Assembly (NCBI GenBank): GCA_973895155.1
Contig: OZ316892.1
Span: 18,590,357-18,654,356, forward strand
Direction of reading: 5' to 3'
DNA from: Marsupella aquatica
Taxonomy: Eukaryota > Plantae > Marchantiophyta
Length of the DNA: 64,000 bases
Made by a program: the position numbers and the translations under genes. A model generated the notes under the pieces. The model did no database searches. It was not told where the DNA came from and was given only the letters and a program-made list of their open reading frames with translations. Below, piece after piece: positions 10,664 to 41,199 of this stretch; positions within the stretch are counted from its first letter, which is position 1, and each line of letters starts with the position of its first letter.

Positions 10664-11201
10664 GGGCTTAGCCATATGTGAGGGCCCTTGCATGAGGCAT
10701 TTCCACCTCAACCCGGAGTCTGACCTTGCTGCAGAAAACAACTGTCCAGGGGTGGGCCTCCCGTCAGCACACCAGGGAGGCTGGATGTGCACTGATTGTT
10801 TGGAGAAGCAGGCTAAGTGTGCACAGTGTGGGAAGTTGGGGTCTTATGAGGGCTCTGTTGATGCTCCACCACTTGTTAGGAAATGCCCTGACAGATATTG
10901 TGTGAGGTTCTTTTGTTTTTCATGTTTGCCCGATCTTGCCACAGCTTGCCCACTTCATAAGTGCAAGGCATGTGGTCAGCACGATGAAGATTTCTGGGTG
11001 GACATAGTCCACTGTGTTAGGTGTCCCACCATGTGGCACTTTCATTGTTTGAAGGAGCGTCAAGCAGAAGGCTATGCTTGTGACAGACACATCTATGATC
11101 ACTCTGCACATGGTGTTGATCGATGGATCTTCTATTGTCATCGCCATGCCATAGATCCTACTTTGCACACTCCCATGAGAGATCACATTTCTTGGCTTTG
11201 A
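10664..11201 (+). CDS. EDM2-like composite PHD-finger protein (copy 1; 5' part missing or interrupted)
   Basis: LAICEGPCMRHFH...CTDC..KQAKCAQCGKLGS...CPDRYCVRFF...CPLHKCKAC...CVRCPTMWHFHCL...IFYCHRHAIDPTLHTPMRDHISW follows the EDM2 PHD cassette (CPLHKC, CRRCPKSYHRKCL, IYC..HEID....TP.RDH). No introns visible. Confidence 0.75.
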
Positions 11202-11799
11202 ACCTGAATAATGTACATGCATAGTGCACCTGATGTGGATACCTTGGAGATTGCAGACATTCCAATTTTGAGAAGAAGGACCTCTGTAGGAGAGGATGCT
11301 TAGGCAACAAGTACCCTAAGTTCATTACTTGTTCCTGGGTACATGCCTTCAAAAACTCCCCTTAAGCCTTCTAGGAACCTTTTTTACTCTGCAATCATTT
11401 TGATCACGACTTACATGACACTACTTAAATTAAATCAGGACTTCTCATTATGAGCATATAAGTTACAAGGCTATTTAATTTGCGAGAATTCCCTTAAAGT
11501 GTACCAACATTTTGTATTGTCATTGAATGTCTGCCCATTTACAACATCTGTATGTGGCATCACAAAACAATTGCACTTGTCACCTTCAATATTGTGAAGG
11601 CACATATTCAAACTATGAGGTGCATGCTTGCAGGTGTCTAGTACGTTTGTCCCAATATTTCTCCCATTTGGAATCGGAGCAGAGACTCACCAGACGACTG
11701 GACTGGACCAAGTTATAAACGCAGCATTTTAAGGGCCCTTCGATTATCAGGTGAACGCATTATCTTCCGGTCTGCAGTGATTAGGTGGCCCGTGTGTAC

Positions 11800-12648
11800 A
11801 TGGCCTCTAGGAAACGTACAAAGGTTGACCACCCGCCTCTGTTGGCTGGAATCAAAGCCATTTTGATTCCTGGCCACTATGGGTTCACCCAAGTGAGTTG
11901 GCCAATCGTACAAAAACGATTCTCAGAGTTCCATGGGACTGAAGTCAAGGACATCACTCCACAGACTACACATGTTGTTGTAGGGACATGGCTGGATGTG
12001 ATGAACAAGTGGTCATGGTCCTTCATTGATTCTGCCATTACCAACCAAGGTCTAAAAGTAGTTGAAGTCTCTTGGCTGACCGATTCTGTTAAACATAGGT
12101 GTGTACAGAGTACTGAGCAATATGAGTTGTGGGAGAGTGAGGAGGCCACTGCAGAGGCTTTGGCTGAAAAGGAAGCCTATGAAGCAGCGGCAGAGAAACC
12201 CAACTTTGCTTCTATCCAATATGGACCTGTTGTCAACATAGGACACCATCCTATGCGTGCAGATGCTATATTGAATGAGCATGGCAAGGAGAGAAATACC
12301 ATTATGAAGGGGTTCAGTGTGGTATTTGCAGAAGAAGGAATTGGGGAGACTAAGTGCAGATTGTACAAGTCTATAGTTGTTGAGCTAGGTGGGACAGTGG
12401 AGGAGAGTCTAACAGAAACCTCCACTCATGTTGTAGGTCTGTCATACATGAAAATATGCAGAAAATTCTTTAAGACAACAGTGCGTGATTTTGTCATGAA
12501 CAACAATCTTTGGGTGCTTTCCCCTGATTGGCTTCTGGAATCAGCAGCTAGAGGGAAGCGACAGAATGCTTGGGACTTTGATATTTTTGAGGCCTGGCCC
12601 TCCAAGATTCAGCGGAGATGTATGCTTAGCAAAGGTGGGAGAGAGTGA
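11800..12648 (+). CDS. Tandem BRCT-domain protein, intronless
   Basis: Two BRCT signatures: ITPQTTHVVV...VVEVSWLTDSV..Y and ELGGTVEESLTETSTHVV...LSPDWLLESA..F. NLS-like RKRTK at the N-terminus. Confidence 0.8.
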   Translation: MASRKRTKVDHPPLLAGIKAILIPGHYGFTQVSWPIVQKRFSEFHGTEVKDITPQTTHVVVGTWLDVMNKWSWSFIDSAITNQGLKVVEVSWLTDSVKHRCVQSTEQYELWESEEATAEALAEKEAYEAAAEKPNFASIQYGPVVNIGHHPMRADAILNEHGKERNTIMKGFSVVFAEEGIGETKCRLYKSIVVELGGTVEESLTETSTHVVGLSYMKICRKFFKTTVRDFVMNNNLWVLSPDWLLESAARGKRQNAWDFDIFEAWPSKIQRRCMLSKGGRE

Positions 12649-12788
12649 GGAGTAGGAGTCCCTCATATTTTTGTATAAATCACAATTTTGTAATAAATGT
12701 GATCCTTGAACTAACTCATCTTGTCATGGTTGGTCGCAGTTGAAGTGATTGTTGTTTCCTGCTGCGTGGGGTGTGACTGTGAATCTAC

Positions 12789-13358
12789 TTGCTGGGCTCT
12801 GTTTGGCTGAAGACTTTGGTGGGTATGCTGCCTCTTCCAGACCGTCAGGCCCTATGTAGGGTCCTCCTACGGGTTGCATCGTGCATGGCTACTGCTTGGG
12901 CTTACTTGTGTGGATTGGTAACCAGACAGAGTGTAGCTCCATCCGAGATAATGCCTACAGACCTTGGATGTGTTGTGAATGCTGTGGTGAATGAGGATGC
13001 ACAGTCGGAAGAGGACATTTACTTTTCAGCAGATGAGTTAGACAAGCACGATGCTGTAGGTGGTTCCTTGTTGCCTGATTTGGCAGATGATATAGTTCTT
13101 ACACATGTCTGGCCGAGGGTTCTTGTGGTGTCTGGCGCACAAGATATCTGCAAATATAGACTAATTAGTACCCAGTGGAGGGACTTGGTAGCAACATGTG
13201 CACCATGGAGGGCACTGTTGCCACTGCTTGTAGGCACGGATCGAAGACCACCATGGCATGAGCAGGGTTTAGACCTTGATGACTTAATGTACATGCCTGA
13301 GTACCTCAGGGCTGAGTGGCATCGACAACAGGATTGGTATCCGTATTTGATGTGGTAG
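12789..13358 (+). CDS. F-box-like protein (start uncertain)
   Basis: LLPDLADDIVLTHVWPRV...ICKYRLISTQWRDLV matches the F-box pattern LP.L.DD....I..R....R.VS..W..L. Confidence 0.55.
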   Translation: MLGSVWLKTLVGMLPLPDRQALCRVLLRVASCMATAWAYLCGLVTRQSVAPSEIMPTDLGCVVNAVVNEDAQSEEDIYFSADELDKHDAVGGSLLPDLADDIVLTHVWPRVLVVSGAQDICKYRLISTQWRDLVATCAPWRALLPLLVGTDRRPPWHEQGLDLDDLMYMPEYLRAEWHRQQDWYPYLMW

Positions 13359-13684
13359 TAAGATGAGGACATCTCACACCGGTCTCGCACCTGGCACCTG
13401 TGTCTATGACTATACATGATTGGACTCTGATATGGTCATGGATGTACGTGCAGAGGCAGTACATGTGAGGACAGCGGAGGAGTTGACACCCTCAAACATT
13501 TAGGAATTTTGTCTCATTCACTTGAGAATAGGTACATGACTCAGGCACCTATATTTTTTGTTTTTTTGTTTTTTTGGAACGTTACGTATTTTGGCAAGTA
13601 CAGTCGGGGGTGAAATCCTTAACAGGAAGTGTATTTTTCACTTGCATAATAAAATGACAGGGTGCTGAGTGCGTGTGTATAGTG

Positions 13685-16600
13685 ATGGCTCCAAGGTTGC
13701 CTCTTCACAACCCATTTAGGATTAGGCATCATGATTCTAAATTGTGGATGCGTGAACAAGCCCGGGCCGCCCAAGGTAGGAGTAGGAGGATGAGATGCCC
13801 ATGCACACAGTGCCAAGGATTCAAGTCGTTGAGTTTGAACACTGTGCACCTTCACCTGCTGCGGCATGAAAGGCACCCTCGGTGGAGGGTTTGGAATGTA
13901 CCAGCAGAAGAAGACTCCTCTGATGAAGAGTGGAGAGCTGACTTTGTGGATTCTAATACAGCTAGGCGTAGAGACTACGTAGAGCAGGACATAGACTGTG
14001 CAGAGGATGGTCCTGGGGTCCAACATGAGAACGTGGATGACCAAGATGGAGATGTAGAGGCAGTCACTGAGGACGGTGGGATGGATGTCCCAAGAATGGT
14101 TCAAGAGATTTTTGAAGACCTTGATGCTTTTTACGACACAGTGGAATCAGAAGAGGACAATGAACCGCAGCCACACATTGGCGACGGCCAAGCTGAACCT
14201 GACTTTGACATTGGGGAAGGTGCAGCAGAGAGGGAGTGGGTGTTTGGGGGCCCAAAACACATCAAAGAAGCTTGCATTCCTATCTACGAGGGGTCGAACT
14301 GCTCCAAGCTGGGTTTTGTTGTGTTGTTGTTGAACATCTGTGGCAATCACAATGTTCCCAATATATTTGTGACAGAGTTGTTGACCTTCCTGCGCCGAAA
14401 TGTGTTACCAGATGGTAATTCAATTCCAAAAAATATGTACGAGGCTAGGAAATTGATGTGTAACCTTGGGCTGAACTATGTGTCTATTGACGCATGCCCT
14501 GATGGGTGTGTTCTCTTTCGCAAAGAGCATGCAGATAAATTGACATGCCCTCATTGTGGTAAGCACAGGTACAAGAATGTAGGGAAATGTACACACCCTG
14601 CCAAGGTTCTTCGTCATTTTCCTCTCATTCCTAGACTACAACGTCTGTTTAGATGCCCTGCCATTTCCAAGCTGATGACATGGACTCCTGATAACAAGAG
14701 CAGTGATGGCCTGCAGCGTCACATTGGAGATTCCAACCATTGGAAATTTGTTGATGAGAGGTGGCCACAGTTTGCTGCAGAGAAGCGGAACTTTCGATTT
14801 GGTCTATCACTGGATGGAGTAAACCCACTTGGAGACAAAAACAACCGTTATTCATGTTGGCCGGTTACGCTGCTAAATTACAACCTTCCCCCATGGATGA
14901 CTACAAAGAGGTTTTTTGTCATGATGGTGCTGTTAATCCCTGGACCAGCTTCTGTGACCGAGCAATTCATAGATATCATGTTGGCTCCAGCAGTGGAAGA
15001 GTGGAAGACTTTGTGGATAGAAGGGGTGTTAACCCATGATGTTCTGAAGGGGCTTCTTCGACCCAACCCCTTTAGACTGCATGCAATTTGTTTGCTGGAT
15101 ATAGCAGATTACCCAGGCCATGGCATCATATCTGGACGAGTGACAAAGGGCTATGTGGGGTGCACACCATGTGGGAAAAATGTGACAAGTGAGTGGTCGC
15201 ATGCCCTGCACAGTATGAAATTTCAGGGGCATAGAAGGTATCTGCCTGTTGATCATCCTTACAGGCACACACGGTCTCAAATTGCACACTTCAACAACAA
15301 AACAGAGCTTCGTGGCCCACCATAGAGGGTCACCAGAGAGCAAGTCCTGAGGTGGGCAGCCAGGAAGGCTGATTGGGACAAGAGAAGTGCCACTGATCGA
15401 GAACCTGAGGATCCAGTGGTGAAACACGGTGTGAAAAGACAGACCTTGATGGACTTGGAGTTGGAGTACTGGAGGGTAATGTACTTAGCCTCCAGCCCCT
15501 GTATGATTGCAATTTTAGATTGGAGCAATGGTGGATTGATGTTGGTTACAATCCTCCTATGTGGTTAATTAGTGTTTCTATTGTTGAATTCTTTGCTTTG
15601 TGGAGTGCAGGAATTCGAGCCCAGCAAACACAATGTGGACGTCATGCACATTGAGAAAAATATTTGTGAGAGCTTGCTGAAGTTCTTGTCGGGTGAGAAA
15701 GATACAGGAGCAGTTCGAGCTGATATGCAACAGAAGGGGATTCGCCCTCACCTTTGGTTGAAGCCCCATGCAAGCAATCCCAATGTACTTCTCAAGTTCC
15801 AAGCTCCCTATGTGTGCACACAGGATGAATGGAAGACATTCTTGTATAGATTGAGCTGTCTGAAAGTGCCCTCTGGCTATGCTGGTGCCTTCAAGAAGCA
15901 TATTACAAAGAATAAACTTGGCAGTATGAAAACACATGACTACCATGTGTTGATGCAGCACATTCTGCCCCTATGCCTCAGAGGTCTCATGCAGAAACCA
16001 GTCCGTAATGTCATTCTTCGACTGTGCAATGTATTTTGCCGTATATGTGTGAAAGTGTGGGATCCCCAAGGATTGGAGCAGTTGAAGCAGGATGCTGCTT
16101 ATGTCCTCTGTGACTTGGAGATATACTTCCCCCCTGCTTTCTTTGATGTTATGACTCATCTCCTAATCCATGTGGTAGAAGAGCTAGGGCAGTATGGGCC
16201 AGTCAGTACCAGATGGATGTACCCTATGGAGCGATACATGAAGTTGTTGAAAGGTCATGTGAGAACATACTACAGGCCAGAGGCTTCCATGGCATTGGGG
16301 TACATTAAGGATGAGACGTTGGGATTCCTAACAGAGTACATGGCTGGGTCTGGTGAAGCTATGACAAGAGTTTGGAAATCTGGTGAAGATGATGGAGTGA
16401 GTGGCGAGGTTGTTGAAGGTGTGGGACGTGTTGTTCAGCTGCCTGTTGCGATTTGAGACAAGGCTCATTCATATGTGCTGGCAAACACAGAGCCTATGCA
16501 ACCATGGTGGAGGTGAGTGATTGAATTGACTTGCCTTTGTTGTGATGCTTCTTGTCTGTTCCAAGGGTGATCTTAGGTTGTCATGTGTTGTTTAGACCTA

Positions 16601-17385
16601 ACTATGCCTGTACCTCATATTGCAGGGAATATGATATGCAAAAAGCTGCACACTCTGGGCAGCAGGATCCCTTCCCACAGTTCGAGCAGTGGATTCGGGT
16701 GACAATTCGAGAGCATAGTAGACATCACCCAGATATGGAGAAGGATTTGTATCTTCTATCTGTGCCACCACGATTGTCTATTCTGACCTACAAACGGATG
16801 AGAGCTTATGGAAATCATTATCGAGTGAGGGATGAGCAGGGTGACCATTGTGTATCATATGATTGTGGTTTGATTTCTGTGTTTGAGCAGAGAACCTCTG
16901 AAGAACAGAGGGGGTGGATGAAGATGGGTTACGTGGGGGAGTTGACCGACATTTGGGTGTTGAATTATGGTAACACAAGTGTCCCAGTGATATTGATGAA
17001 GGGATCATGGGTGAAATCAGAGTGGCAGAGACCAAGGGCCACCATGAAGCGTGATCATGATGGGTTCTTGTTGGCCAATTTTAGGTCCAGAGTACCAGAA
17101 TGGTTTGAGCCTTTTGTTTTCCCTAGCCAAGTTGAACAGGCTTTCTTTGCAGATGTGGAGGAGTCACATGGCTGGAGGGTGGTATGCCATAGCCAAGCAC
17201 GGAACAGGCGGATGGATGGAAGTAAAGTAGAGTTCAGTTTGGATGACCATGCTGCATTCGAGCATCCTAGTCATGAGACTGTACTTCCAACTTGGGCAGG
17301 GACTGCCTACATCCCCTTAACATTGAGAGAGACATATGATGAACCTGGGCAAATGGAATATGATGAGGTTGATGATTTGCAATAG
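13685..17385 (+). pseudogene. CACTA-1 TnpD transposase (Transposase_21/DUF4218/DUF4216 type); introns ~15476-15610 and ~16513-16625; in-frame stops at 15323 and 16454
   Basis: CPCTQC; IDACPDGCVLFR..CPHCG; LRHFPLIPRLQRLF; GLSLDGVNP; YNLPPW; DYPG; DVMHIEKNI; KTHDYHVLMQ; FPPAFFDVMTHLLIH; RWMYPMERYMK; EPFVFPSQVEQAFF. Confidence 0.95.
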
Positions 17386-17562: not shown

Positions 17563-20500
17563 ATGGGGGAAGAGGGTGATGGCATGGAGACAGACATGGG
17601 GCTTGGAGAGTGGGGTGAAGAGGAAAGATTGGATATGGATGGAGACCCAGATGCAGGGGGCTCACAGAAAAATGCACCTGTGCAGGATGCACAGGGCCCT
17701 CATCAAGTCCCAGGTAGGTGGGCAGCTAGAGAGAAATCACATAATCCATACCCTAGAAGGAGCCAGAGTTATTGGCAAGGGACGCCTGATAATTATGATG
17801 ATGACTATGATGGAGCAGAAGATGGATGGGATGAATATGAACACCCAGAGCGTGGTAGAGACGGGTACAGAGGGCAATGGAAAGGTGAGGAGGATGATTG
17901 GACAAGTAAGTGCCTTGTGCTAGTGATTTTGTGATGGTAGTAGAGATTTAGCTCAATATGCACTTATCTGATGTGTAGCTAGGGCAAAGAGTTTATCTTA
18001 CAGGTCCATGAGTGTGGCATGTACCTGTTGGTATGCAGACTCTGATTGGGACAATCACGAAAACAACAAAGGCCATCCACGTTCAGATAGGAGGCAATCA
18101 TTCACAGGCGGGAGAAATGCCCCTAATTCATCAAGACAAAGCAATAGGACAGGTGGTCCAGAACCATCTATGCGCCAAGGGAGAGGTAACTTGGTCATTG
18201 CAGAATTGCTCTGAAGTCCACTGTATATTTGGCAGCGGGATTTATGATTCATACTTACCTAATGTAAGTGACTGTAAATGGATCCTGTAAATGTGCAGGG
18301 ACTCCAGGGAGGTTTGGACAATGCAATCCAGGCCGTGGGGGGAGATCAGGCCGTGGAGGGACCCCAGGCCGTGGGGGGACACCAGGCCGTGGAGGGACAC
18401 CTAGTAGCGCTTCAAGGAGTACCAAGGCAGGAGACAGTAACAAATTTGGTAAAGTAGAAGTGAATTCCGAAGGTTGGATAACTCCCACATGTGATGGTAA
18501 GAACCGTTGGCATTCTGACCTAAGAGGAGAAGTATTGCGTTGGTTGGATTTGAGCATTACAGAGTTTAGGAGTCAGAACAAAGCTGATTGGGCTGCTATC
18601 TGCAAGGACATTCTTGAACGGTGGGAGTATGTTGGTAATGATGGTAAGGGCCCAGTTGAAGATTGCATATCAGATTATGCAATGAGGATTTTGAAACAAG
18701 AGAGGCATAGGTTGAAAAGGATGTGGATAGACAATGGTTCTAACAGGAGAATGCCACCACCCCCATCATTGGAACTGGATCAATGGACACGGTTAATCAA
18801 AGGGTTCATGTCGGAGGCTGGACAGAGCAAGAGTGAACTGATGTCAAATGCTCGAGGCAAAGTGAAACACCTTTCACAGGCTGGGAGAGGAAGTTATGCT
18901 CCAGTGAAAGAACAATTGGTAAGGCAGTGACATGCCTGATAGTAAGCCTCAAACTTATCATCTTGCTACCATTATTACATTTTCATTGACAATCAACACT
19001 TGGTTTCATTCATATGTATGTTGATGTGGACTGCAGAAGAAATTGACAGGTGAAGAACCATCAGCACAAGAAGTGAGAGAGGAGTTCATGAAACAAAGGA
19101 GTGAGGTGACAAGTGTAACTTCCAAACAGGTGATTATGTTGTAATTCTGTATGTTCTGTGACTATTTGGCCTTGAGCATCAGAAAGAAATGTAGTAGAAA
19201 GTAAGCAACCAGTTCTTGGGGACAGTTATCTGAGATATGTAAGCTGTGTTATGACAAGGAACTGTTACAACTCTCACAGAGATGTGTGAACGATTGAAGT
19301 CATTAGAGTGTGGACTCCCTCGAGTGGAAAGTAAATTGGCTGATCGTTTGGATATTGTGGAGGCATCTGTAGCGAACCTTCTTGCATCAGTGGAATCTAA
19401 TTTCAAGCTTGTGATTGAAAAATTGGGTGGTTCCCAACCAAACAATGAGGGCAACATTGTACAAAGTGTGCCCTTGTTAACAAAAAAGGGAATTGGCAAA
19501 TCTGACACAGGTATGGAAATGACACCGGCCCATTGTTCATTGTGTCCTATGTTCAAATGTTAGAAGTAAGTTTTCATGAATTGAGTGAATGGTTTGAATG
19601 CAGGAAGAGTGGAGGCAGAGAAGGACCCTGTAATCAATAAGCAGAAGGGCAAGAAGGTTGCTGAGACAGGTAACCTGCTATGATCCAGTACATTACATTT
19701 GAAAAGTGCATGGAGTTTTGTGAAGCTTAAGCCGGTTGGAGGTAATCTTTTCTGTAAGAACTGGTTGGATGAACTGGGATCTGAAGTGACATCATGATTG
19801 ATGTATCAGGTGATTCAAAGAGCAATAATGAAGAAGATGTGCCCAGTGCCTCAGTGACCATAGCCAAGGAGGTATCAGGTAAGCTGATGCTTTAAATTCC
19901 TCTATATGAATGTTGAGAAACAATTCAGTGGTTAATAGATTCAACTTGAATATTGTGGTGTGTTTATTGATCAACAGAAGCAGACATGGAGCATATGGCA
20001 ATGGCAAAGAAGGGGAAGAAGGCTGTTCATAATGGTAAGGAGATAGTGACAACTTTGTGGTTGGTGACATGTACATTTAGCACATGTGATGAGTGATTGA
20101 CTTATGTTGGACATGACACTGAATTGTAGTTGATGCAGAGTTGACAGACTCTCAACCAAGTGGGAGCAGGGTGAAGCGACGTTGAAACTTGGGAGCAACA
20201 TTGGATGCAAGTAAGATTGTAGATGCTTCAATTGAAGCAAGTACAATGTTGGCAGATACTGAGATGATGTCGCAGGGAAATCCTGCTACACAATCAGAAG
20301 TGTCAAATATGGATGCAGATTCTTTGAAGAAGAGTGTAGCCAATTCTCGATCACCAGCACAAAACACTCGTGCCAAAGTCATGACTCGCAACCAAGGTAT
20401 GAATAATGTCATGTATAAGCCACCCAGGAAAGCCAAGAAAAACAGCCAGGGTAAGGTGGAGGTGATAGCCACAGCAGAGCCAGTCCATAATCTTCTATCA

Positions 20501-20734
20501 TGGGAGGATGACTCGCAGGTATGTGTGGGTACAGGCATTTTGCGACCGGACCATGCAAAATTCCATGGCAAAGTGGTCCCGGATGACCATGTAGTAGTGT
20601 TGTTGACTATAGTGATTGTATCTGATTGTAATTTGCCATTTCCGAATAGAGATGATGATCCACCTCAGGAAATAATTGCAGATGCAATAGGATCTCTTGT
20701 GCTTTGGCCATCAGAGTGTGTTAGTCTGCAGTGA
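17563..20734 (+). CDS. CACTA-1 TnpA-like multi-exon gene
   Basis: Series of GT-AG exons. Core ILKQERHRLKRMW...PPPPSLELDQWTRLI...KSELMSNAR (Transposase_24-like). C-terminal VGTG...FHGKVVPDDHVVV...LPFPN...IGSLVLWP domain typical of En/Spm TnpA. Confidence 0.75.
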
Positions 20735-21234
20735 CTGAATGCAAGTGTAGATAGAATCATGTGAATTGTGTCACATTTTGACATTGCCTTGGAAAGATCC
20801 AAGAAATATTTGTACCAATTTTTCCATTTGGTAAAGAGGATGAAGGAGCCGTTGTGTGTGACATTGATATTTCTGAATTCTGTATGTATGAAACAAGTGA
20901 TTGATGTCAAACTATGGCTCTATGGTGATTGTCTATGATACTTGAATCTGTTTTGTATCATTTGAGTATTAGTGTGTATGGTATAGAGGAATACTTTGTG
21001 ACCTTCTTTGTAGTCTATGAAGTTTGAATCTGTGAATTCATATTAGTGTACATGGTATAGAAGATGGCTTTCTGAAACTATGTATTCTAATGTTAACATG
21101 ATGAATGGTGAACTTATAGAGTGAGTTCATTCCAAGTACACAATAAAACATGAATGCAATATGTTATTTGTGCACAAGAGTGGGTTCATTCCAAGTAGTA
21201 TAGTGGGGTCTTCATCACTCATATCCAGTTGACA

Positions 21235-21562
21235 TGAAAGACTTATACATACCCCACAAAGTATATTTAAAGACTACCCTCCATAACCTTTTTAGTCGTT
21301 CCCAACAACTCACCATCACAGCCCATAAAAGACTGAAAACGACTCACCAAAGCTACCCACACAAAGACTAAAATAGACTGAAAATCCAGTCTATTAAACG
21401 ACTTATAAACCAGTTCTATAAAGGACTCAGTTGATTATAGTAACAAAACATACGACTCGCAGTCCTATAAAGGACTGGAGTCCTTCCCAGTCGTTTCCAA
21501 GTCCTATACGGTACTGAATAGTCGTTTAATGGGGTCTAAATACCCCCCGGTTTCTACTAGTG
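21235..21562 (-). mobile_element. CACTA-1 right end: subterminal GACT/AGTC repeats plus TIR
   Basis: Ends ccccggtttctactagtg = reverse complement CACTAGTAGAAACCGGGG at 21562, followed by tgg. Dense aagact/cgact/agtc motifs in both orientations. Confidence 0.9.
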
Positions 21563-23486: not shown

Positions 23487-23829
23487 GAGTTTCTAGATTC
23501 ACTATCTGATTTGTAACTTCATGCTTGCACATTTAGAAGGAAATAAAGTTGTGAATGTGTTCTAAGTTCCATACATTGTTGTTACATGCTGCAAAAATTG
23601 TCGACTCCTTCATTTCCTTCATTTGTTCATTTGTTCATTTTTGAATGTACCCTACCAAAACACGATCTCACAGAGCGCCCACTTCGAAAGTATGCTAAAC
23701 TTCAAACACAACGCCCACCCCGAACACAACGCCCAGGCGTTATGTTAATCTTGTTGAGCATAGACGATACTCGTAACGGTAAGCACATGACATATCCAAC
23801 GCGCAAGTAGTTGACACAAGAGATCAAGA

Positions 23830-28826: not shown

Positions 28827-31800
28827 TGTGGTGCGTCCCATGGCTCCCTAAACCCAAGAAACCCCCCAGCACAAGCCGATTCCTGTAGATTTCGCGCTTG
28901 GCGAGGCCGTTTCCGCGGCTTAGCGGCATGGGACGCTGCTAATCTCCTTCTACTATTACTATTAGCCTTTTACACACATATACTGGACAGATCCTTCATC
29001 GGGTCATGAGATACGTAGTCAGCCTAATCTAGGCCTTCCCTTGTCTTCCTCTCCTTTTGGTTAGGTATGTTTGGATTCCGCCGCCGGAATGATCCCCAAT
29101 AGGCTTGGTTAAGCCGCTAAGACCTCTCTCAGCTCGACACATCCAACTCTCACTCCCTTGCTTACTTTCCTTCCTTCTGGTTGATGTGGGCACTCTTCAC
29201 ACAAGTTAATGTGACACACAAATAGCAAAATGACTCCTTCTGACTGAGTCATACCATGCACTTGCCATACAAACAGTACATCTCATACACAAGCTCTGCG
29301 AACTAAGCCGTGAGGCCAACTCTATTCAGCTTAGGCATGAGGAAACATGAATATACACAAGGTCACGGTATGACTAACCGAGAGCTTCTCTTACTACTTG
29401 ATCCCAGCCCGACTGGTGCAAACTAAAAACTTGCTAAAGAAGAGGCCCTGAGCTCCCCGCTGCCCAAGTATTTATCTTGGTAGTGGATCCGCCTAATTCT
29501 TTGCAGCATAAGCCTAACCTACCTAACAGTAATCTACCTGCCCGAATCTACCTATGTACAGCAAGGCAAGAGCACAAGTGTTGCTCCTACCAGTGGAACC
29601 GCAATCCCACTAAGCTAAGTGTCAGGGCCGCTCCTGGTCCTGATCCTAATCCTAAACTTGGAGATCAGCGCCCGCCCTGCCCACTCACGCCTCCTACCTC
29701 CACGTCCGCCCTTCCTAAAAGGAACGGCGCCCTTGCACCGTCACGACACCGGTGGTGGATCCTCAATGGACGCCCCCAATGCGGAATCTATTGCCGTGTT
29801 CATGCCGAAGGTTGGTGCCGGTTTGAGTACGGCTTGAGGGGTCGAATAACCTCCGGACCCCGAAGGTTTCCGCTTCTTCTTCTTCACTATCTCCACAGCC
29901 TGTTCCTTCCCCTTGCCGCCAACGTCCGGCACCGGGCCGTGTGTCACGGCTGGTCCTTCGGTAATTACCACCCCTGGTAACTGGTTTGCCCCAATGGGAG
30001 ATGGACCTGATGTAGCTAAGCATTTAAATACTGCGGCTTGTTTCTTCAGCCGCTCAGTTTGGTTGTCAGCCCACCGCTGTAGGTTCTCCATCTTCCTTGT
30101 GATTTCCTCCAACTCCTCCTGGGTCTCATCCAGGTCCTTACGTGCCTTCTCCAGCTCGTTTTTGGCTTCCTCCAATTCCCTGTGGGCTTCCTCCAATTCC
30201 TTCTTGGTGGTAGCCCTCTCCTCCCGGGTTGCTCTTAGCTCCTTGTCGAGCTCCGCTACGACCTCAGACTCCATGTTATTCATCTTGGCATAAGTCTGGT
30301 CGAGCTGGGCGTCCTTCTCCCACAAGTCGGCCTTGAAGCTGGCCGACAGGGACGCAAGCTCCTGCTGTAGCGCAATAATCCCTTGATAGGATTTTCCTAA
30401 CTCGGCCTCCTTCTGTTCAAGGGCTCCGCGGATTTTCTCGAGCTCTCCCTTCAGCGCCCTCTCCCTTCTCTGAGTCTCCGCCGTGACCCGGTTGTTGACT
30501 GCTATATGGGCCTCCTGTGCTGTGTCCAACTGCCCCTGCATGATGTTCAGCTCATGCCGCTTAATCCGCAGTTTATCTTGGGCTTTCTTGGCCGCCCTTA
30601 GATCTTCAATCTCGGCTTCCATCCTCCTAAGCCGCCGGATGACCTCGTCCTTCTTGCTTCTCTCTAAAGCCACCGCTTCTTCTAATTGGTGCTTCTCCAA
30701 CTGCTCCCTATGGAAAAAGGGTCCTACCTCCAACTCCTCCCCAAAGATGTCGAGCGCAAGTTCCCCACACATCTCACCATACTCCATGGCTCTATTCTTA
30801 GCGTAGGTGGAATAAGTAGAAGTGATCGGCATCACCCATCGCGGCCTCTGCTCCCAAGCCGTCTTGCGGATCTCTTCAATCGTGGCTAGAGGTTTGCTTC
30901 CTTTTTCGACTAGCCGCCTGATGTCCTTCGGCCAATCTCCTCCTGGCAAATCCTTTTCCCTAGCCAGGGCTGCCTCCTCTTCCTGCCTGATTCGCTCCTG
31001 AAATTCCTGCGCCGTCTGTTTTATGCCGTCAAAGCTCGGGGGAGCAACATCTGGTGGGGGAGACTCAGGGCTACTCTCCTGGTTGGGGTCCCCTCGTACT
31101 ACCCTTGGAAGTGTGGGGATAAACCGGCCACAGGTCCTTACTCTTGGAACGTGATGGTCCGACCCATAGCCGGAGTTATCATGGCTGCAGTCCTCCACTG
31201 CCTCCTCTACTTCTTGGACTTTCGGCTTCTCCCTCTCTTCGTCGGTAGGAGCTTCAGGCAATTCTGCCTCAAATTCAGAGCTTGAGACTCCCACGTACAT
31301 TCGAACACCCGGCTTGGATTCTGGCCTGATTCTGCTTAGGTTGACCTCTGGGGCAGTGTCCTGTATTGGTGCTGCTACCGAAGCCGGGTCCAGTGCCGTC
31401 TTTTCCTTCTCCAGCATTTTCAGCAGATTCTGTATGCTTGGTTGCTGCATCGGCAAGTCTTCCTTCCTTGGTCTGAACACCTGCTCGATTGTAGGACTGT
31501 CAGGTGGTTGAGGCTTCTCTGCTACCGGCCTCGGTGCTGGAGCTTCCTCGGGTGCCCTTACCTGCAGGGGAAGTACTGGGGCAAAGGTCTTACCTCTGGC
31601 ATACCGGCACAACAGCGGCATGTGATAGCCAAGCCGCGACACGCTCCCCATGCCGATTACCTGCTGCTCCTCCTTTAAGATCTTCTTCAATTGGTTGAGG
31701 AGGTACCCATTGTAGTCCTGGCTTGGGTCTGGCCTCTCTGCCAGATAGACCTGTGCCTTGCCGATCTCTGCCCTCGGCAAGTTACAATGCATGGTCACCC

Positions 31801-33008
31801 GCAAGAAGTCGATCATCTCTCCTATGTGCGGGTTGGTGCAGGTGTTCCGGAAGAAGCCATTCTTCGTTGATGGCCCGGGGAACGACCGGAACTCCTTGTC
31901 AGGCAAGGTCTTTCTGGTATCAACTTTGGTCTTATTGCCTATTGGCAAGCCAAACACTTCGGCAATCACCTTGGGAGTAAGATAGAAATCCTTCCCATAT
32001 ATCCTCGTGCAATTGGTCTCGGGTTCCCATGGCCCCACGAATTCTAATAGGTCTGAATCCGGTACCTCCGGCTTCAGCCATGGTAATCTTACAAAGGCCT
32101 CTAAGCCGGATCCGGCCATGAAGCCTTGGTACTTCTTGGTCTGCATGGATGTAAAGCATGCATCCTCCTCCCGTGCAAAATGTAGTTGCACCTCCGCTGG
32201 TAGGGTTGCCGCCCAGCCTTTCCAGGTGTCATCCCTGGTTGGAATGGCATTGATGGGATCGACCTCTTTGGCTTCTCCCTGCCTCCTGCTTTGCTGCTCA
32301 GCTGGCTTCTTTGGTGCCGCCAACCTCGTTCTTTTTGCCGGGGTGGCTTCATCGTTAACGGCTCCCTTCCTCTTCATCTCGGCTGCCGTGGGGGTTTCTC
32401 CTAGCACCGTTGCCTGGGTCCACCTTTCCGTGCTACCCTTCAATTCCCAGTGTATGTCGTTGCAGTTCTTGATGGCCTCTCGAATGCCGATGATTCTGTC
32501 TTCGCAAAACATAAGATCGTCGAGCTGATTGGAAGTAGGAGTCCATAAGAACTCGGCCTTGATGAGTTCGCCTCCTAAGAAAGCCGTCTTCTACAGCTCC
32601 CACAATCGAGTGAGCTCCTGTCGTTCTCGAGCTGCCCTTTCTGATTCTTCGTCCTCGTAAGTCTTGATGTACTCAGTTGCCTGTTCGAACAGGCATCCCC
32701 AGAAATGTGCCGCTTGATTGACGTTGCTCATACCCTCCTTAGGTCGATCGTCGGTATCTACTCTCTCCCCGAGTGCTTGCCTAAGCAGTTGACAGTAGTT
32801 GGCCTCCCGTAGTCGTCTGCCTAGTTTGCGCTCGCAAATGAGCCACCATCTCCTGCAAGCGCTCCTTACCTCCGGCCTCGGCCCGGGTTCCATAGTCGCC
32901 CCTAATTGTTTATATTTTCCTTGTTTTGTCCCTATACTAAGGTGTTTCTAGGGTGCACTCCTGCTTTACCCACTTAACTGGCCGAGTGATTCCTGGCTAG
33001 GCATCACA
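28827..33008. mobile_element. Insertion A: 4,182-bp TG...CA unit with 5-bp TSD GCCAC (probable solo LTR carrying an ORF)
   Basis: gccac|TGTGGTGC ... GCATCACA|gccac; 7/8-bp terminal inverted repeat; no internal direct repeat and no gag/pol. Confidence 0.85.
29741..32893 (-). CDS. ~1,050-aa retrotransposon accessory-type protein (globular domain, Pro-rich linker, coiled coil); single in-frame TAG at 32591
   Basis: The 32591-32893 and 29741-32512 ORFs are in the same frame (WEL*KTAFLGGELIKAEFLWTPTSNQLDDLMFCED). Domain GLEAFVRLPW..LLEF..W...T.IYGK...LT...IAEVFGLP, then a long heptad region. Confidence 0.75.
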
Positions 33009-36000
33009 GCCACTATCATGGAATTGTCCACAACGCTCTTCATCTTCACCAAATCTCCTCTTGCAAACTGTGAACAACACATTTTGTTAAAAATGCAATA
33101 AACATAAATTGAAAGATAGAAGAACACTCAAATCAAACACACATTTACCTTTGCAATGGGGTTAGGAGACTGCATTGGTTTCTACTGTGCAGGTGATGCA
33201 TTTGCTGAGGATGCTTTCTTCCTTTTCTTCTTTCCCTTTCTAGTTGATGGAGTGTCATCCTGCTCACTTGGAACAAGAGTTTCTTTTGGCAACTCAGATG
33301 ATTCTGGGGTTACATCTGGTGTCAACTGAGTCGACTTATCCTCTGGCAACTGAAAGGCATCTGAAATGGCTTCTTTGGGCAACTTAGATGGCAAAAGGTT
33401 CACTTCCAATAATTCAGTTTGCTTCAGAGTACTATTAGTTGTGTCAGTTGGTCTTCCCTGTGACACAGGAGGCTCCCCTAAAGATGCTGTCATAAAACAC
33501 ACACAAAAGAAATGCATAAACAAACATGTATACACCAGCAACATATAATCACACTAAAAACATGCAAGAACATTATAAACATGCAATGACATATACATAT
33601 CACAATAATTACATTGAATGGACAGTGTATACATGATAGAGAATTTTACCTTCATTATCGCCTGAAAAAGTAAGAGATCGCTTTCTACTACCTTGTTTGG
33701 TAGCTGTAGTCAACTTACTGTGACTAGGCACAACTGTTGGAACTTGTGCATTACTGGTTTGATGTGCCATCCATGTAGTCATCATGTTTGTCAACTCCCT
33801 CACAGTGCCTTTCAACTCAGCGACATCCCATTTCACAGCCCCAATGGCAGTGATCTCTTCTTTTGAATGTGGGGTCTGTAAATGAACCACAAACCAACAC
33901 AACATTCTCACTGTCAAACTTACAAACGACACAACACTCTGTCAAATGGAGAATGATGTACAAATCAAATTGGTATGACAATACTCACAGCTGATCCATG
34001 TTTGTATCCTTGCCCCAGTAAGCTAGCACTTTTACCCTCCCCACTTGCCAATGATGGGCTCACCTTTGCTCCCACAAAACTACCAGTCTGACCTTTTGCA
34101 CTTGCCAATGATGGGCTCATTGTCACCTTTGGCAATGAACCCTGACTACCATGGTTTTCTTTCAGGTCAAATATACCTGGGCTTGATCCTCTCTTCTGAT
34201 CCTGTTCAAACACACAATGAATGAGAATCACAGAGTCTATTTTCATGAAGATTCACAAACAAGACAGAATTGATAGTGAAAATGATAGACAATTTACCAT
34301 TCTCTTTGCTGCTGCAGCATGCCCTCCTCTTCCAAAGTGAGAGGTATCTTGCACTCGTGCTCTTTTATCAGTCATCTATTTACTCAAAGATATCAATGCT
34401 GGACTGGTAAAATGAGATACCAAAGCTGCCCATTTCTTTGGATCAACACCAGATGGCCCAGGTTTGGTTGGATCCTCATTGCAAACTTTCTTCCAGTAAA
34501 CATGCATTTTATGGCGCTCTCTCTTCAATATGCCACGACAATGTCTCTGGAATTTGGTCTTAATAAATTCCCCACCCACATACTTCCACTCAGCTGCCAT
34601 GTTATTCCACACTGTGGTTGTATGAACTTGTGGATGATCAGTCCATTTTGGCTTTGATACATCAAAGACTCTGAGTACGTTGCCACGAAGTTCCTCCAGC
34701 CAGTATTGTTTGTTGCCATCAGAATCATCAATATCATTGTCATAAATCTGCATTTCACAGACAATGTCAATTCATAACTCTGGAATTTATGCAGAGTCCA
34801 GGTTTTATACACACAACAACAGAGAGGATCAGATTTGTCTAAATCTACATTCAAAAAAAGTACAATACTCACTTTAATGTGTTTGGGCAAATCTCCATGA
34901 TCCCTTCGTTGTTTGGCAGTATTATCAAACTGCTTCTTAGCATGCCTTCATTCCCTGCGCATCTCAGAGGCCCCGCCTGCAATGCACACACATGCATTCA
35001 ATCAAAAAATATGTACATGATTGAAAAGTTGAGCAAATGCCCTTGCATATGCATGACGAGCAGATTGTGTATTACCTGAAGATCCTCTGGAATGTAGTAC
35101 ATCAGATTGACCTGATCTGCCTTCAGATGCTGATGGAACCACTAAACAAACACACAACACCAAAGCACTTCAATTAATTTCATTTCCAAGTAGAATATCA
35201 ACTTCCAAACACACCTGAAAAGTAGAACAGTACAATCCACTCACTTTCATATAAGAGTCCAGTGTCTGGGTCTTTCCAACATCTCACCAGCCCACCTCCA
35301 CCAGGCCCAGTCTTCTTAGGACCACGATTTTGTTTCTGTACCTACATCATGGACAAACGTAAGCATATCAACATATAATTTGAAAAAGGGACAAGGATCC
35401 CTTCCTATTAGGATGATGAAGTTCAAGCATTACCTGTTGTTCACTCTCTGGTTCTGACCCTCCAATGTCAGAGTCCTCAATGTCATACTCAGAAGGAGAA
35501 CCATAGCCATCATCACCACACTCTGCCATGTTCACCTTGGTAACTTCTGATAGTCTAGAGCTCCTCCTCTTTGGCAATGTTTCAGTTGAAGTACCTTTCA
35601 CCAAAGTAGGCTTTCCTCTCTCTCGTTGTACATGTGTGGTTGGGCCTCTAAGGAACAAAGCAATCATCAACATACACCAATGCAGATCAAACATACATGC
35701 AAAATGAATCTACAACACCGTAACACTAGTACTTATGTACAGGATCCATACTAGTATGAGACCAATCTGGAATATGAAAACAGAACATGAACCTGACAAC
35801 TTCATCTACTGAATGAAATTTGCAATAGACATATTAACACACACATCAGCATGCAGCCTGGCCCCAGTCCTAGATCATGCATAATTTTGACATTATGCTC
35901 TATGTTCCGCTTTCGGGCCTCCTCATAAGGATTCATAGAATATGACAACCCCTGCAATCTTCCTTTCCCAGGCTGCATTCACCAACTGCACAAATGGGTA

Positions 36001-36072
36001 AACCATTAGTCTGATTTCATATATAGTCCATACATGTAGTCCATCTATGGACTTCACACACCTAAAACCTAT

Positions 36073-39000
36073 TCACTGCTTAGGCCTGCCCTTTCTTGCA
36101 GATCCCTCTGCATCTCTACCTCGTTTGGGACCAGTACTTGGTCCTGGATTTGCTCTGGACCTACAGGCCTTAGCCAATTCAATGTGTAATTTGGCATTGT
36201 TTTCCATTGTAGCATGGAAATCAACGTCTGTGTAATCACCTAACACCCTTGTGGACCTGGATTCTTTGTGGAGGATTGTTCTCCATGCTATCCCCTTCTC
36301 ATTGGGGTGGAAGAAAACCTGCTCCACTTGCTTTGGGAAAACGTAATCCATTTTCTTGGACACACCCAGTTCTCTATGGAAATTCACTTGCCAAAGACCA
36401 GACTCAGAATACCTCATACTGGCAGAGGATTTAGGAGTCCATGATGGATCTGCCCATTTCCCTTTGAAAAGAATCACCCCTTTCCTCAAGCTGCCGTAAT
36501 TCAGTACTAAGATATCTGTCAAGGCCCCTACATACTGTACAGATTCTTCTCTAGTTGCGCTTGACCTGTCCACTCGCTTCTCAGTGAATGTCGAAGCCAT
36601 CCCAGAATCAAAAGTGCTGAATGCACCAGAATCACAATCACTCAAACACCCCAAGGATGGAATAGTCCTCTAGTGATGCCCATAGGCTCTGCATGCCCTA
36701 TACAGTCGTGCCTTCAAACTAGGTGGTGTGGAGTATGCAGATAGTAATGACCGCTCAGACTCTGTCTCAAAATTATGGGTATTGACTAATGTTTGAAACC
36801 ATTCCCTGAAAGGTGGCAGTTCTTGGCAATCAAGGGGAAATTCCACTGGTTTTCTTCGATTGGCAGGCTTCCTCATCCATTCCTTCCGGAAATCCACTCT
36901 TTGTTTGGTAACAGTCTCATTGGTAGCATCATATATCCTACATGGCAACAACAACACTCAAGACATTAGTGCACGATCCACCATGAATATACAAACACAA
37001 TGGGGCAGCATAATTATGATGCATATGGTACAGGGTTTACATACCTATACCATGGAGCCACTGTCTCTTCATTCTCCAATATATAATGATGCATGGCCAT
37101 CATTTCATCTGACCAATTCAAAGTTATCTCCTTTGCAGCCCCTTCCAAGACAATGCCTGCAACGCCAGCATCCTCCTCCAACTCCCAGGTTCGTTTTCCC
37201 TCTCCCTTAGCATCAATCATGTATTCAGAAAGGAATCCCAAAGACTCATCTAATACATAGCCTTCAGCCATAGAAGCCTCTGGACGTGCCTTGTTTTGTA
37301 CATAACCCTTCAAAACCTTCAGGTTCCTCTCTATTGGGTACATCCATCTGCCTGTAACTGGGCCACACAAGTCTAATTCCTCCACTAGGTGAATCATTAA
37401 ATGGGTCATGACATCAAAGAAGCTTGGTGGAAAATGGATTTCCACAATGCAGAGAGTGAATGCAACATCCATCATCAAATTCTCATACATTGAAGGGTCC
37501 CACACCTTCGTACAGATCTGGCGATAGATATTGCTCATCCCAGCTATGGCCAAGCGAACCCCTTCATCAAGTAATCCCATTGTTGCCAGAGGGAGAATCT
37601 GTTGCATGAGTTGGTGGAAATCATGTGATTTCAACCCAGAGAGTTTCTTGGATTTTGTAACACACTTTGCCAAAGAACTTGAAAAACCAGTGGGCCCTTT
37701 CAAGGTCAATAACACCTCCAAGAACCTTGTTGTTTCCTTCTTGCTCAGGCAATATGGGGCTGGGGGCATCAACAATTTGTCATCCTTACGCTTGGGAGCT
37801 GGATTGGGTACAAGCCATAGGTGTTGGCGTACCTGTAAGAGCTTCAGGTCTTCTCGCACAGAAGGAGTGTCCTTGGTCCCAATGATAGTGTGCACAATGT
37901 TGTGTGCAAGATTCTTCTCACAGTGCATGGGATCTAGACAATGGTTAATGAGTAGTTCCTGCAGTGGACACACAATTCAGAAATTAGGGCACTGAATACA
38001 ACAATTACAAAATCTGGGCTACAGGAAGTAAACACATTTCAAAGTCATATGAAGAGATTGCAGAAATTCATTGTAGTAGTATGGAGTCTTACGTTCCAAT
38101 AGGGTAACTTGTACAGACTAGTAGCCCTCTTCACTCCATGCACCTTTATGGGGCAGCTCTCATCCTCAACCTTGGTTCCTCCCTTCTTCAAATATTCTGT
38201 TGTCTCGTCTCCCCACTTCTTTCTATCAGAGCTTGACATTCTACACGGTGCAGGTCGGCTCTCAATTGCACCATCAAAGTATTGTGCACTGTCTGGTCTA
38301 CGAAAAAGATGCCTTGCTGCTAACCATCGACGGTGGCCACTGTACTCTAATTTCTGCAAGTGCTTAGAACCACGTGCCACACATTTTGGCCCACAGATGA
38401 CACATCCTTTGTATCCAGCGTGTTGTTGTCCAGATATTAAACCATATGCAGGGTAATCATTGATTGTCCACAATAGCACAGCCCTTAGGTTGAAGTGTTG
38501 AGACAATCCTGGGCGTGGCAATTTGTCAAAGCAGGGCACTCCTTTCGTCCACAACAGCTCCAGCTCCTCATAGAATGGGCCCAATCTTATGTCCAGTTGT
38601 TCCTCTGTTACTGAATCAGGTCCTGGAATCAGCATAGCTAGCATGACAAAGAACTTCTTGGTGGTAAGCCAAGGAGGTAAATTGTAATTCAACAACAAGA
38701 TTGGCCAGGTAGACCAAGCTGTGGAATTATTCCCAAAGGGATTCACCCCATCAAGTGCCAACCCAAATCGCACATTCCTTGGTTCAGCTGCAAATTTTTT
38801 ATCAATATTTGTATCCACATGCTTCCAAGCCTTGGAATCTGCTGCGTGCCAAACCATGTTGTCTGTGCTTCTATTCTCATGATGCCAAGTCATGAGTTTA
38901 GATGTACCAGCAGTGGCATACAATCTCTTCAACCTGGGAATTATAGGGAAATACCGCACCACCTTCCTTGCCTGTAATGAATTCCCCACTCTCTTCATCT

Positions 39001-39939
39001 TGGGCTGCTAACACACTGAACAGTTTTCTAACTTGGCATTTTCACCCCTAAAGAGCATGCAACCTTTCTCACAGACAGGGATTCTCTCATAATCCAAGCC
39101 AAGCTTTCTCAATAGCTGCTTTGCAGCATATAAGTTCTTGGGCAGATTATGCTCTGCAGGCATACCATGCTCCCCCATCAAAGACAACATGCATTCACTC
39201 CTTTGTTTGAGAATCCATGGCCATGACAGATGTTCAGCAGAAGCAACATGAATGACACAACATATATTTTGCTGCCTGGGAACAAAGGTTGCATTGCTGC
39301 ATCTAAAGATAACTGTGCAGGATCAGTCTCCACAGGAGTTTTGGAGGTTTGAAGGGGGTTTACAGGATGGGCACCTCCTTCACTCTCATCATCCCCAAGT
39401 ACAAAATCCAAGTCAAAACGGTCCTGATCATCTAGCTCATGCTCAGGGGATTCTTCACTGGTTCTCAGCAACGTTTCTTCCAGTAGAGCCCTGATATGTT
39501 CTTTGACATCTATAGTTGGATGTTCTTGAACATCCACAGTTGGATACTCTGGAACATCCACAGTTGGATACTCTGGAACATCTACAAATAAATGTTCTTC
39601 AACATCTATAGTTGGCTGTTGTGCACAGGTTGCCTGCTGAAGGTTTGCTACCCTCAATGCCTCAGGGCCATGTTGTAACATGTAGTCAGCACCCCACTCT
39701 TCATCAGAAGAGTCCTGTCCCTGTTTAATAAGGTGCAGTCTAGCAGTATTCCGATTAGTCCTATAATTCCCTTTGCAGTTCACACAAGGGCAGTACATCT
39801 TATGGTCCCCACTCTTGTGGCAGGCCTTCTGTTCTCGAACCCACAAAGCATCATCACGATGTTGTACTCTAGCTGGATGGAAGAGCGGCAACTTTGGAGT
39901 TCTACCCACACCTAACGTATTCTGTGGCAATTGTGCCAT
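36073..39939 (-). pseudogene. CACTA-2 TnpD transposase, two introns, several lesions (~39180, 39008, 36670)
   Basis: CPCVNC; YFPIIPRLKRLY; GLALDGVNPF; YNLPPWLTTKKFF; NDYPAYG; DPMHCEKN; KSHDFHQLMQ; FPPSFFDVMTHL; RWMYPIER; YVFPKQVEQVFF. Confidence 0.95.
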
Positions 39940-40512
39940 GCTAGCTTGATTGAAATTGTATTCAAACTATGATTTTCAAACTGAATCAGAGTGACATGCA
40001 TACAAAATTGGGCCTACCGTCACAGTTGTACAACCGATGCCAACCACAGTCCAATTGCTCAAACCCACAGAGCCCAGTTTCTCAAATCCACTGTAGTAGG
40101 ACACCTTCTCCTTCTTGCATACAAATAGAGCATCACATACAATGTCATCAGAATGATACTATGAACGTAAATCTCTGTGCCTTCATCATTTCCAGTATTT
40201 GTTTGCCTATTAGGAATGTGAGCAGACAGGTCTGGAATAAGTAACGTTTGTGACACCAGTGACAAATTTACAAGTGAAGTTTAGACATCAATATGGAGGA
40301 AAGTCACACTCAAAGCACTTGCTTGAAAATCAGAATCCTACCCTGGAAAAGATAATAAAGTTGATTTCTCAAAATTAATTGCCTCAATCCGCAATGCACT
40401 GTCGTAGAGTGTGTATACATGAGGAGTTCATCAAACTGCATATAAATAGTCCACATGTTTTAGCACTCTGAAAATTGTTTAAGTGCACGTGAAACCATCA
40501 AAAAGCTCTATC

Positions 40513-41199
40513 TCAAGTTTGTGTTCCATCCAGCCTCAATGAAATCCAAGATATGTGGCTCCTAGCAGGAGTGCCTAGTGTAGGGTCAATGTCATGGTCA
40601 GGACAGTAAAACATCCCCTTCTTGGGCTGCCCATGCGCTGAGTGATCCCAAATTGTTCGATCATGGGCAAATCCCCTCTACTGGATAAACAGCAGGCAGT
40701 CCTTGTGCCATGCCTTAGGACACCTCATGCACTGAACCAAAAAGCCATTAGCCCCATCATTGGGCCCCTGTCCACAAGTAAGACAAATATGGAGTCCACA
40801 TGATGCTGTGCCAGGAACCAAACACTACCGATAGTAAAACCGGGCACAGAGAGAGTCTGGACATTTTCTTACCTCTTCACCAATTTTTCCAGACACATGG
40901 CACTTAAAGCAAGAATGTTCCTCATTCTTGCAATCAACACAAAGCCATTCTCCAACATGGCCATCAGCGAGGGATATAGTTGGGCATAGCCATTGCTGAC
41001 CCAAAGGACAGGAAACATTCTTATGGAAATGTCGGTGGCAAGGCCCATCACAAACAATGAGATCCCCTCCCTCATCACAAATTGCACATACATGTGGACT
41101 ATTCTGGTTAATCTCAATGTCTGAATATAAGGACAATTGAGGTGCTTGAGAGGATTCACCTCTGCAACGATTCATGGCCTTCTGCTTATTGCGAGCCAT
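40513..41199 (-). pseudogene. EDM2-like PHD-finger gene (copy 2), two in-frame TAGs (40825, 40678)
   Basis: VCAICDEGGDLIVCDGPCHRHFH...CVDC...HSCFKC...CPDSLCARFY...CGLHIC...CMRCPKAWHKDCL...DHSAHG..FYCPDHDIDPTLGTPARSHISW; 229 codons, collinear with copy 1. Confidence 0.8.

Follow-up and report, generated by a model that had tools for sequence, protein, structure and literature searches.

The DNA analysed here is a 64,000-nucleotide stretch (the window) of the liverwort Marsupella aquatica, positions 18,590,357 to 18,654,356 on the forward strand of contig OZ316892.1. It carries two diverged families of CACTA elements, and in both families one short gene for a PHD finger protein, which was captured from an EDM2-type gene and kept under selection, lies upstream of the transposase gene TnpD. 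Both elements were assigned to CACTA by TnpD (with Transposase_21 and DUF4218); CACTA termini with subterminal repeats lie at 21562 and 63790. We tentatively propose, with somewhat less than even confidence, that the PHD protein is an element-encoded chromatin decoy or adaptor that would blunt host silencing. A bolder version, in which a CACTA lineage made EDM2 into a counter-silencer joining a reader cassette to a mimic of the histone H3 tail (A1, R2, K4, A7 and K9), seems to us possible but doubtful.

An earlier note on this DNA had reported three PHD open reading frame (ORF) pieces, and their coordinates, strands and motifs proved correct. We built one profile from 16 long host EDM2-type cassettes only and searched it against the six-frame pieces of the window; copy 2, copy 1 and copy 3 matched with E values of 4e-36, 4e-29 and 3e-11, respectively, and the next-best piece with an E value of 0.08. 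As the same note had described, TnpD follows downstream of copies 1 and 2 in the same orientation (Table 1), and the transposases of the two elements are clearly diverged: the TnpDs, which contain Transposase_21, DUF4218 and a weak DUF4216, are 47% identical. Copies 1 and 3 are assigned to one family, since they are 92% alike over 50 nucleotides and the loose ends of contigs from outside sequencing runs at 10664-10673 continue into the intact N-terminal sequence seen in copy 3; we count two PHD families in the window, not three.

All three copies in the window are broken. In copy 1, the sequence of the intact protein sets in only at codon ~49; ahead of it lies a different repeat, whose last position is 10663. 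Copy 2, which is covered whole by one outside contig, is interrupted by TAG at codons 125 and 174; at both places P0006, an intact relative of 81% identity, encodes Gln. The reading frame of copy 3 is cut after 64 codons by a CACTAG end at 63790. The adjoining TnpD genes are likewise broken; therefore, the PHD copies of the window are regarded as ordinary dead copies. This dead state, like the H3-tail likeness of the N-terminus, was overlooked in the earlier note. An acceptor-like CAG precedes the ATG by 4 nucleotides in copy 2 and by 2 nucleotides in copy 3; these sites and their differing phases point to a non-coding upstream exon, and the PHD gene likely has an intron in its 5′ untranslated region. 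The description of the gene as intronless thus stands for its coding part, but probably not for the 5′ untranslated region. In copy 2, one retroelement-derived insertion (41216-45060) lies directly upstream of the ATG, in the presumed 5′ intron. Upstream of copy 2, outside contigs run into the pyrimidine-rich stretch found in the window past 45065, and the loose end at 41215 matches the window sequence past 45065.

The linkage between the PHD ORF and TnpD was judged by outside contigs. All or part of element 1 is present in 10 runs of 8 studies; four runs were mapped per element (from 3 and 2 studies, respectively), one of which may be the window's own source. In X1, the run with the longest pieces, the contig depth, which is not copy number, is 1880 at 11379, just behind copy 1, versus 1766-2073 over TnpD and TnpA of element 1; the bin holding copy 1 sums to a depth of 4640. 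Contigs over 6004-9229, within the repeat to the left of copy 1, have depths of 454-526. This depth step and the loose ends at 10664 indicate that another repeat has inserted into the PHD gene and makes up the sequence to the left of 10664. For element 2, the contig over copy 2 has a depth of 701, versus 714-888 over TnpD and TnpA. As far as depth shows, these values support PHD-TnpD linkage in both families, although they are not conclusive; none of the three results that the earlier note had named as refuting turned up, with linkage across the genome judged only by this indirect measure. Scans for the DNA surrounding relatives yielded nothing of use, with one chance match in metagenome contigs, one in viral contigs and none in prokaryote genomes.

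Short relatives of the PHD protein form a family. The search with copy 1 gave two relatives among 26 candidates, and a five-row profile gave 15 among 874. They are mostly ORFs of 213-245 residues on short contigs, and most end with HISW(L/I); intact stand-alone versions of ~215-245 residues exist. Database names were uninformative for 10 of the 10 short relatives looked up. Fourteen full-length short proteins are 35-79% identical (median 46%), and 29 columns, mostly Cys/His, are invariant across 16 aligned sequences. P0004, P0005, P0006, P0007 and P0019 are tied to the window elements by 70-84% identity to a window copy. The Pfam order in the short proteins is PHD-1st_NSD, PHD_NSD and PHDvar_NSD; RFD, ELP, SET and PWWP domains were absent from the short ORFs in the Pfam search, which gave PHD matches only, in agreement with the earlier description of the gene as PHD-only.

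The proportions of synonymous (pS) and non-synonymous (pN) differences are 0.80 and 0.39 between copies 1 and 2 over 168 codons, and 0.30 and 0.03 between copies 1 and 3 over only 16 codons; no dN/dS ratio is given, because the synonymous divergence between the families is saturated. At the three codon positions, copies 1 and 2 are 0.55, 0.63 and 0.35 identical (protein 48%), with the third position most changed. The corresponding values for two TnpD exons are 0.56, 0.64 and 0.35, and 0.57, 0.68 and 0.42 (protein 47% and 48%). This match indicates that the PHD ORF has been constrained about as much and for as long as the transposase. Taken together, the matched divergence and the contig depth matching that of TnpD argue for one old, selected element gene, not Pack-type debris. 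The earlier note had inferred ancient capture, purifying selection and proteins that diverged yet kept the Cys/His pattern, and had set aside a passive Pack-type fragment; the codon-position pattern, the invariant ligands and the depth that tracks TnpD agree with it on each of these points.

The cassette is of EDM2 type. The best long relatives are EDM2-like (3 of 5 matches; 107-112 bits, E 1e-25 to 1e-26) and align over 82-85% of the query at ~30% identity, whereas NSD2 reached 53-55 bits (E 3e-9 to 9e-9) in the same search. One whole-library search gave 812 matches to E 0.001; most of the 150 listed are long, and 20 matches that we looked up by name are either EDM2-type proteins (from green algae, liverworts, mosses, lycophytes, one fern and angiosperms) or unnamed. 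The C-terminal motif YC..H.I....TP.RDHI is present in 16 of 21 short rows, 15 of 31 long rows and 0 of 4 NSD-like rows. We rejected descent from NSD for its lower score and the missing motif, and the scores and this motif, which is EDM2's, together argue for EDM2-type origin. The profile comparison suggested in the earlier note thus favoured EDM2 far more strongly, and the best homologues are not unrelated PHD proteins.

A quick tree was built from 21 short rows and from 31 of the 132 long cassettes (those <52% identical, plus four named); in it, the short rows formed one group (99 by SH-like approximate likelihood-ratio test, SH-aLRT), drawn outside the EDM2 rows; a constrained tree that placed them with land-plant-type rows was 5.4 log units better and unrejected (approximately unbiased test, p-AU 0.64). 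A careful tree was also built from 38 hand-picked rows, with NSD left out; in it, 14 short rows formed one clade (100/100, stem 1.37) inside the streptophyte group, which was separated from 4 algal-type rows with 97/90. This tree leaves the short clade unplaced between EDM2 proper and the liverwort paralogue. The VQC.RCP..WH form, with its W, was found in 22 of 22 short and 4 of 4 liverwort paralogue rows, and in 9 of 126 other long rows. Liverworts also carry one shorter EDM2 paralogue that ends soon after the cassette, for example Marchantia MARPO_0005s0286. The donor may have been among seed-free plants and shortened by internal deletion.

Compared to EDM2, the short cassette has changed at several fixed places. 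Three positions ahead of the first Cys, 104 of 119 long relatives have D/E, whereas all short ones (22 of 22) have P, A or T. The mean number of D/E in the 12 residues before PHD1 falls from 4.89 in long to 1.55 in short proteins; no acidic tract is left. PHDs often hold the H3 tail through acidic residues directly ahead of the finger. Owing to the loss of such residues, the specificity of EDM2 cannot be assumed for the short proteins, and the idea, implied by the earlier note, that the cassette keeps EDM2's H3K9me2-reading surface is not supported. In the second finger, the His ligand became Cys in 23 of 23 short proteins versus 1 of 119 long ones; the linker to the third finger is 7 residues, versus a median of 27. 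The short proteins have one new conserved helix ahead of PHD1, and the CAICD(D/E)GG start of PHD1 is well kept. Two predicted models have mean predicted local distance difference test (pLDDT) scores of 74 and 84, with good fold from about residue 30 (residue 31 on in the confident model). Their nearest folds are NSD PHD-C5HCH and PZP domains, all weak matches; the top PZP matches by Foldseek have a root-mean-square deviation of 13 and are taken only as several zinc fingers. Searches of PDB gave no solved plant structure of the EDM2 cassette.

The N-terminus of the short proteins resembles histone H3. Many members begin with M-A-R-x-K-x-x-A-x-K, whose spacing we take to be that of A1, R2, K4, A7 and K9 of H3. 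Seven of the first 9 H3 residues are matched in one member, 5 in copy 2 and 4 in copy 3. The pattern [AVTS]R.K..[AS].[KR] occurs in 12 of 27 distinct short N-termini, versus 0 of 110 long relatives, whether before PHD1 or at the start; 2000 shuffles never gave it in more than 2 of 27. M[AVT]R.K is found in 11 of 27 short versus 0 of 138 long proteins. One PDB sequence search with the 25-residue tail gave no match. Among long EDM2-type proteins, 15 of 138 start with M-A-R, several of them from seed-free plants, and host EDM2 in these plants may itself have an H3-like start. P0031, P0033, P0034, P0036, P0039, P0045 and P0067 (liverworts, Selaginella and Mesotaenium) start with M-A-R-(T/V), unlike the angiosperm ones seen.

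In the proposed mechanism, the PHD protein would be made from a spliced element transcript, and its cassette would hold it on chromatin or on EDM2-pathway partners. Removal of Met would expose the H3-like tail, which K4/K9 writers or readers could mistake for H3; alternatively, the tail might act as a switch by docking into the PHD of the same protein. Overall, the element would then be marked less repressively or transcribed better. Outright histone mimicry by a plant DNA transposon, by means of a protein that sits on chromatin and poses as histone for K4/K9 enzymes, would be the boldest form of this proposal, and we rate it as rather unlikely. One captured, cut-down host reader from the junction of H3K9me2 and RNA processing, kept in deeply diverged CACTA families, would amount to a different, histone-aimed strategy; the short protein is also one natural minimal version of the EDM2 cassette. 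The intact 220-residue versions make peptide-binding, methylation and transgene tests straightforward.

Several points weigh against the decoy or adaptor proposal. The tail pattern was chosen post hoc from rows that are kin, not independent; its strict form is missing in 15 of 27 short proteins, and tail position 6 is mostly Lys. The basic N-terminus also resembles a nuclear-localisation signal. Since seed-free-plant EDM2-type proteins also start with M-A-R, part of the likeness may be inherited from the host. In both models, the tail is of low confidence and undocked. No contig in the mapped runs bridges the PHD and TnpD coding sequences, and only the five relatives named above are tied to elements, the other short proteins being known by sequence, not context. 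A decoy without sequence specificity would aid rival elements too, unlike VANC21.

Four other explanations were weighed. The protein might be a target-site or transpososome tether, whose cassette reads heterochromatin and steers TnpD/TnpA to repeat-rich, harmless sites and whose tail is a nuclear signal; the element's own machinery would then be what benefits, and divergence of the ORF has indeed kept pace with that of TnpD. The window is entirely nested mobile DNA, with one CACTA end inside a family-1 PHD gene; however, such nesting is also expected from selection against insertions in genes. We consider the tether unlikely, as the ORF is not fused to TnpD (a transposase domain in 0 of 34 top relatives scanned) and the acidic residues before the PHD are lost. 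It is less likely still that EDM2's RNA-processing role was kept, so that read-through past upstream ORFs and poly(A) sites would yield full TnpD/TnpA transcripts. This reading draws on the run of several consecutive ORFs, all of which have an acceptor-like site ahead of the ATG, and on the reported promotion of distal polyadenylation over heterochromatin by EDM2 with ASI1 and AIPP1 (PMC7472560). However, RFD and all parts behind the cassette are missing, and so is the ELP domain, which is described as methyltransferase-like (PMC7529245).

The fixed changes (the His-to-Cys replacement, the short linker and the new helix) could also mean that the gene was selected while its cassette no longer reads histones and instead binds DNA or another protein, one example being a RING-like ubiquitin-ligase adaptor that acts with the BRCT and F-box-like ORFs nearby. 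RING is indeed among the weak structural matches (Z 3.4 or less), but at background level and below NSD2; the CAICD(D/E)GG start is well kept, and family 2 has no BRCT ORF between PHD and TnpD. We regard this adaptor as improbable. The broken state of all three window copies, and the fact that most short relatives are known without genomic context, would fit one passive Pack-type fragment or one domesticated host gene lying by chance among elements. However, the TnpD genes alongside are broken as well, the codon-position pattern and invariant ligands speak for long selection, and the copies lie inside elements with depth that tracks TnpD; this explanation is very improbable. The chromatin decoy or adaptor thus remains our preferred, tentative reading.

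Table 1. Features of the two CACTA elements, the PHD copies and the inserted repeats in the window
Feature	Position	Strand	Details
Separate repeat inserted in PHD copy 1	5447..10663	+	ORFs 5447-7390 and 7603-10017; depth step and loose ends at 10664
PHD copy 1, family 1, EDM2-type cassette ORF	10664..11201	+	~48 initial codons gone; open to stop; 84% to intact P0004
Two-BRCT ORF of element 1	11785..12648	+	Pfam BRCT E 6e-14, 2 stretches
ORF with weak F-box-like stretch, element 1	12783..13358	+	F-box E 0.08, below cut-off
TnpD of element 1, several exons	13658..17385	+	Transposase_21, Transpos_assoc, DUF4218, DUF4216; premature stops ~15323 and ~16454
TnpA-like exons of element 1	18268..20734	+	Weak Transposase_24, E 0.014; contig depth same as TnpD
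Element 1 right end	21001..21562		Subterminal GACT/AGTC repeats; CACTAGTAG terminus at 21562; depth drops beyond
TnpA-side exons of element 2	33009..36072	-	No Pfam match; TnpA identity inferred from position
TnpD of element 2	36073..39966	-	Transposase_21 E 5e-65, DUF4218 E 6e-35; stops and frameshift
PHD copy 2, family 2	40513..41199	-	Full-length, 228 codons; two internal TAG; N-terminus M-A-R-N-K-Q-K-A
Retroelement-derived insertion	41216..45060		TG...CA ends; 5-bp duplication 41211-41215 / 45061-45065
CACTA terminus inserted in PHD copy 3	62967..63790	-	CACTAGAAG at 63790; ATGAC subterminal repeats
PHD copy 3, family 1	63791..63982	-	64 initial codons; N-terminus M-V-R-P-K-I-Q-A-K-K

Element 1 (+ strand) contains, in order, the PHD gene, one two-BRCT ORF, one weak F-box-like ORF, TnpD, TnpA-like exons and the right terminus at 21562; the PHD ORF and TnpD are 2.5 kb apart, with the BRCT and F-box-like ORFs in between. 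Only 1-5 letters differ per 650-1640 bases between element 1 and outside contigs, which suggests that it spread recently. The BRCT ORF is possibly a second reader of chromatin marks on these elements. Another BRCT ORF (22971-23486, +), 26% identical to that of element 1, lies beyond the right end and may belong to another element. The repeat inserted in copy 1 extends to at least 4800, and its left end was not located; judged by outside contigs, it is a young family. Neither of its ORFs (647 and 804 residues) has a Pfam match, and 7603-10017 also has no PDB match; motifs at 5447-10017 are reminiscent of P-element-type DDE transposases. Two terminus candidates were rejected: the CACTAG-like string at 5448 reads as an intron acceptor of the long ORF, without depth step, and the CACTA-like string at 10653 is still part of the inserted repeat, whose junction is at 10663/10664.

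Element 2 (- strand) contains the PHD gene, TnpD and TnpA-side exons, and was invaded by retroelement-derived insertions at 41216-45060 and ~28800-33009, the latter of which breaks the TnpA-side exons at 33009. The CACTA terminus at 62967-63790 is possibly the 5′ end of element 2, a link made by inference only. Within the window, we found no convincing terminus pair with a 3-bp target duplication enclosing PHD and TnpD; the elements are nested or run off. One array of ~578-bp repeats (56900-62900) beside the CACTA end at 63790 is rich in the same ATGAC motif and could be an expanded subterminal region. Downstream of element 2 and co-oriented with it, one NIF/FCP1-like phosphatase ORF (26347-27408, -; E 1e-15) with a degenerate catalytic motif is a candidate member only. 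Elsewhere, the window contains one Copia-type gag fragment (23640-25870, -), spliced ORFs without Pfam match at ~49300-55400 (-) with a 133-bp tandem array in one intron and motifs reminiscent of Kolobok/Mutator-like DDE transposases, and, at its left edge (1-800), short spliced pieces resembling a host gene fragment.

To our knowledge, only a few counter-silencing proteins have been described from plant transposons, and the best known among them are DNA binders. Our literature searches, with subscription journals, Repbase entries and supplements outside their scope, gave no report of any CACTA-borne EDM2 or PHD gene. EDM2 is reported to bind H3K9me2 through two and a half PHDs and to act in distal polyadenylation together with ASI1 and AIPP1 (PMC7472560, PMC7529245, PMC3632883). 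It shares with the short proteins the whole cassette and the C-terminal motif, and the liverwort paralogues also share VQC.RCP..WH. Different from EDM2, the short proteins are PHD-only, ~220 residues long and CACTA-borne; they end right after the motif without RFD or ELP, have lost the acidic tract, and have the His-to-Cys ligand, the short linker and an H3-like N-terminus with K4. NSD1/2/3 have a similar cassette of PHD-C5HCH fold (best PDB sequence matches NSD3, E 1e-11, and NSD2, E 1e-8); however, they score 55 bits versus 107-112 for EDM2 and lack the C-terminal motif, and the short proteins have no SET or PWWP.

Among transposon proteins, VANC of the VANDAL (MuDR) elements is close in concept. 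VANC is reported to be an anti-silencing protein that the elements themselves encode (PMC10398659) and that apparently stems from capture of the host factor MAIN (PMC13547354); VANC21 binds the DNA motif of its own family (PMC5735166). Like VANC, the PHD gene is one extra element gene that stems from a host chromatin regulator, and selection has kept it in elements that also code for a transposase. The two differ in superfamily, fold and likely target, and VANC activity is proven (PMC5735166), whereas that of the PHD protein is a proposal. Rehavkus also has a PHD finger in a DNA transposon, but there, by the available account (PMC6446971), it is part of an animal transposase of Mutator-like element (MULE) type; here it is a separate EDM2-derived gene. 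Pack-CACTA elements likewise hold host sequence within CACTA ends, as far as the available account describes them (PMC13317346). Different from them, the gene described here is a complete, long-selected ORF in TnpD-encoding elements, common to families as divergent as their transposases.

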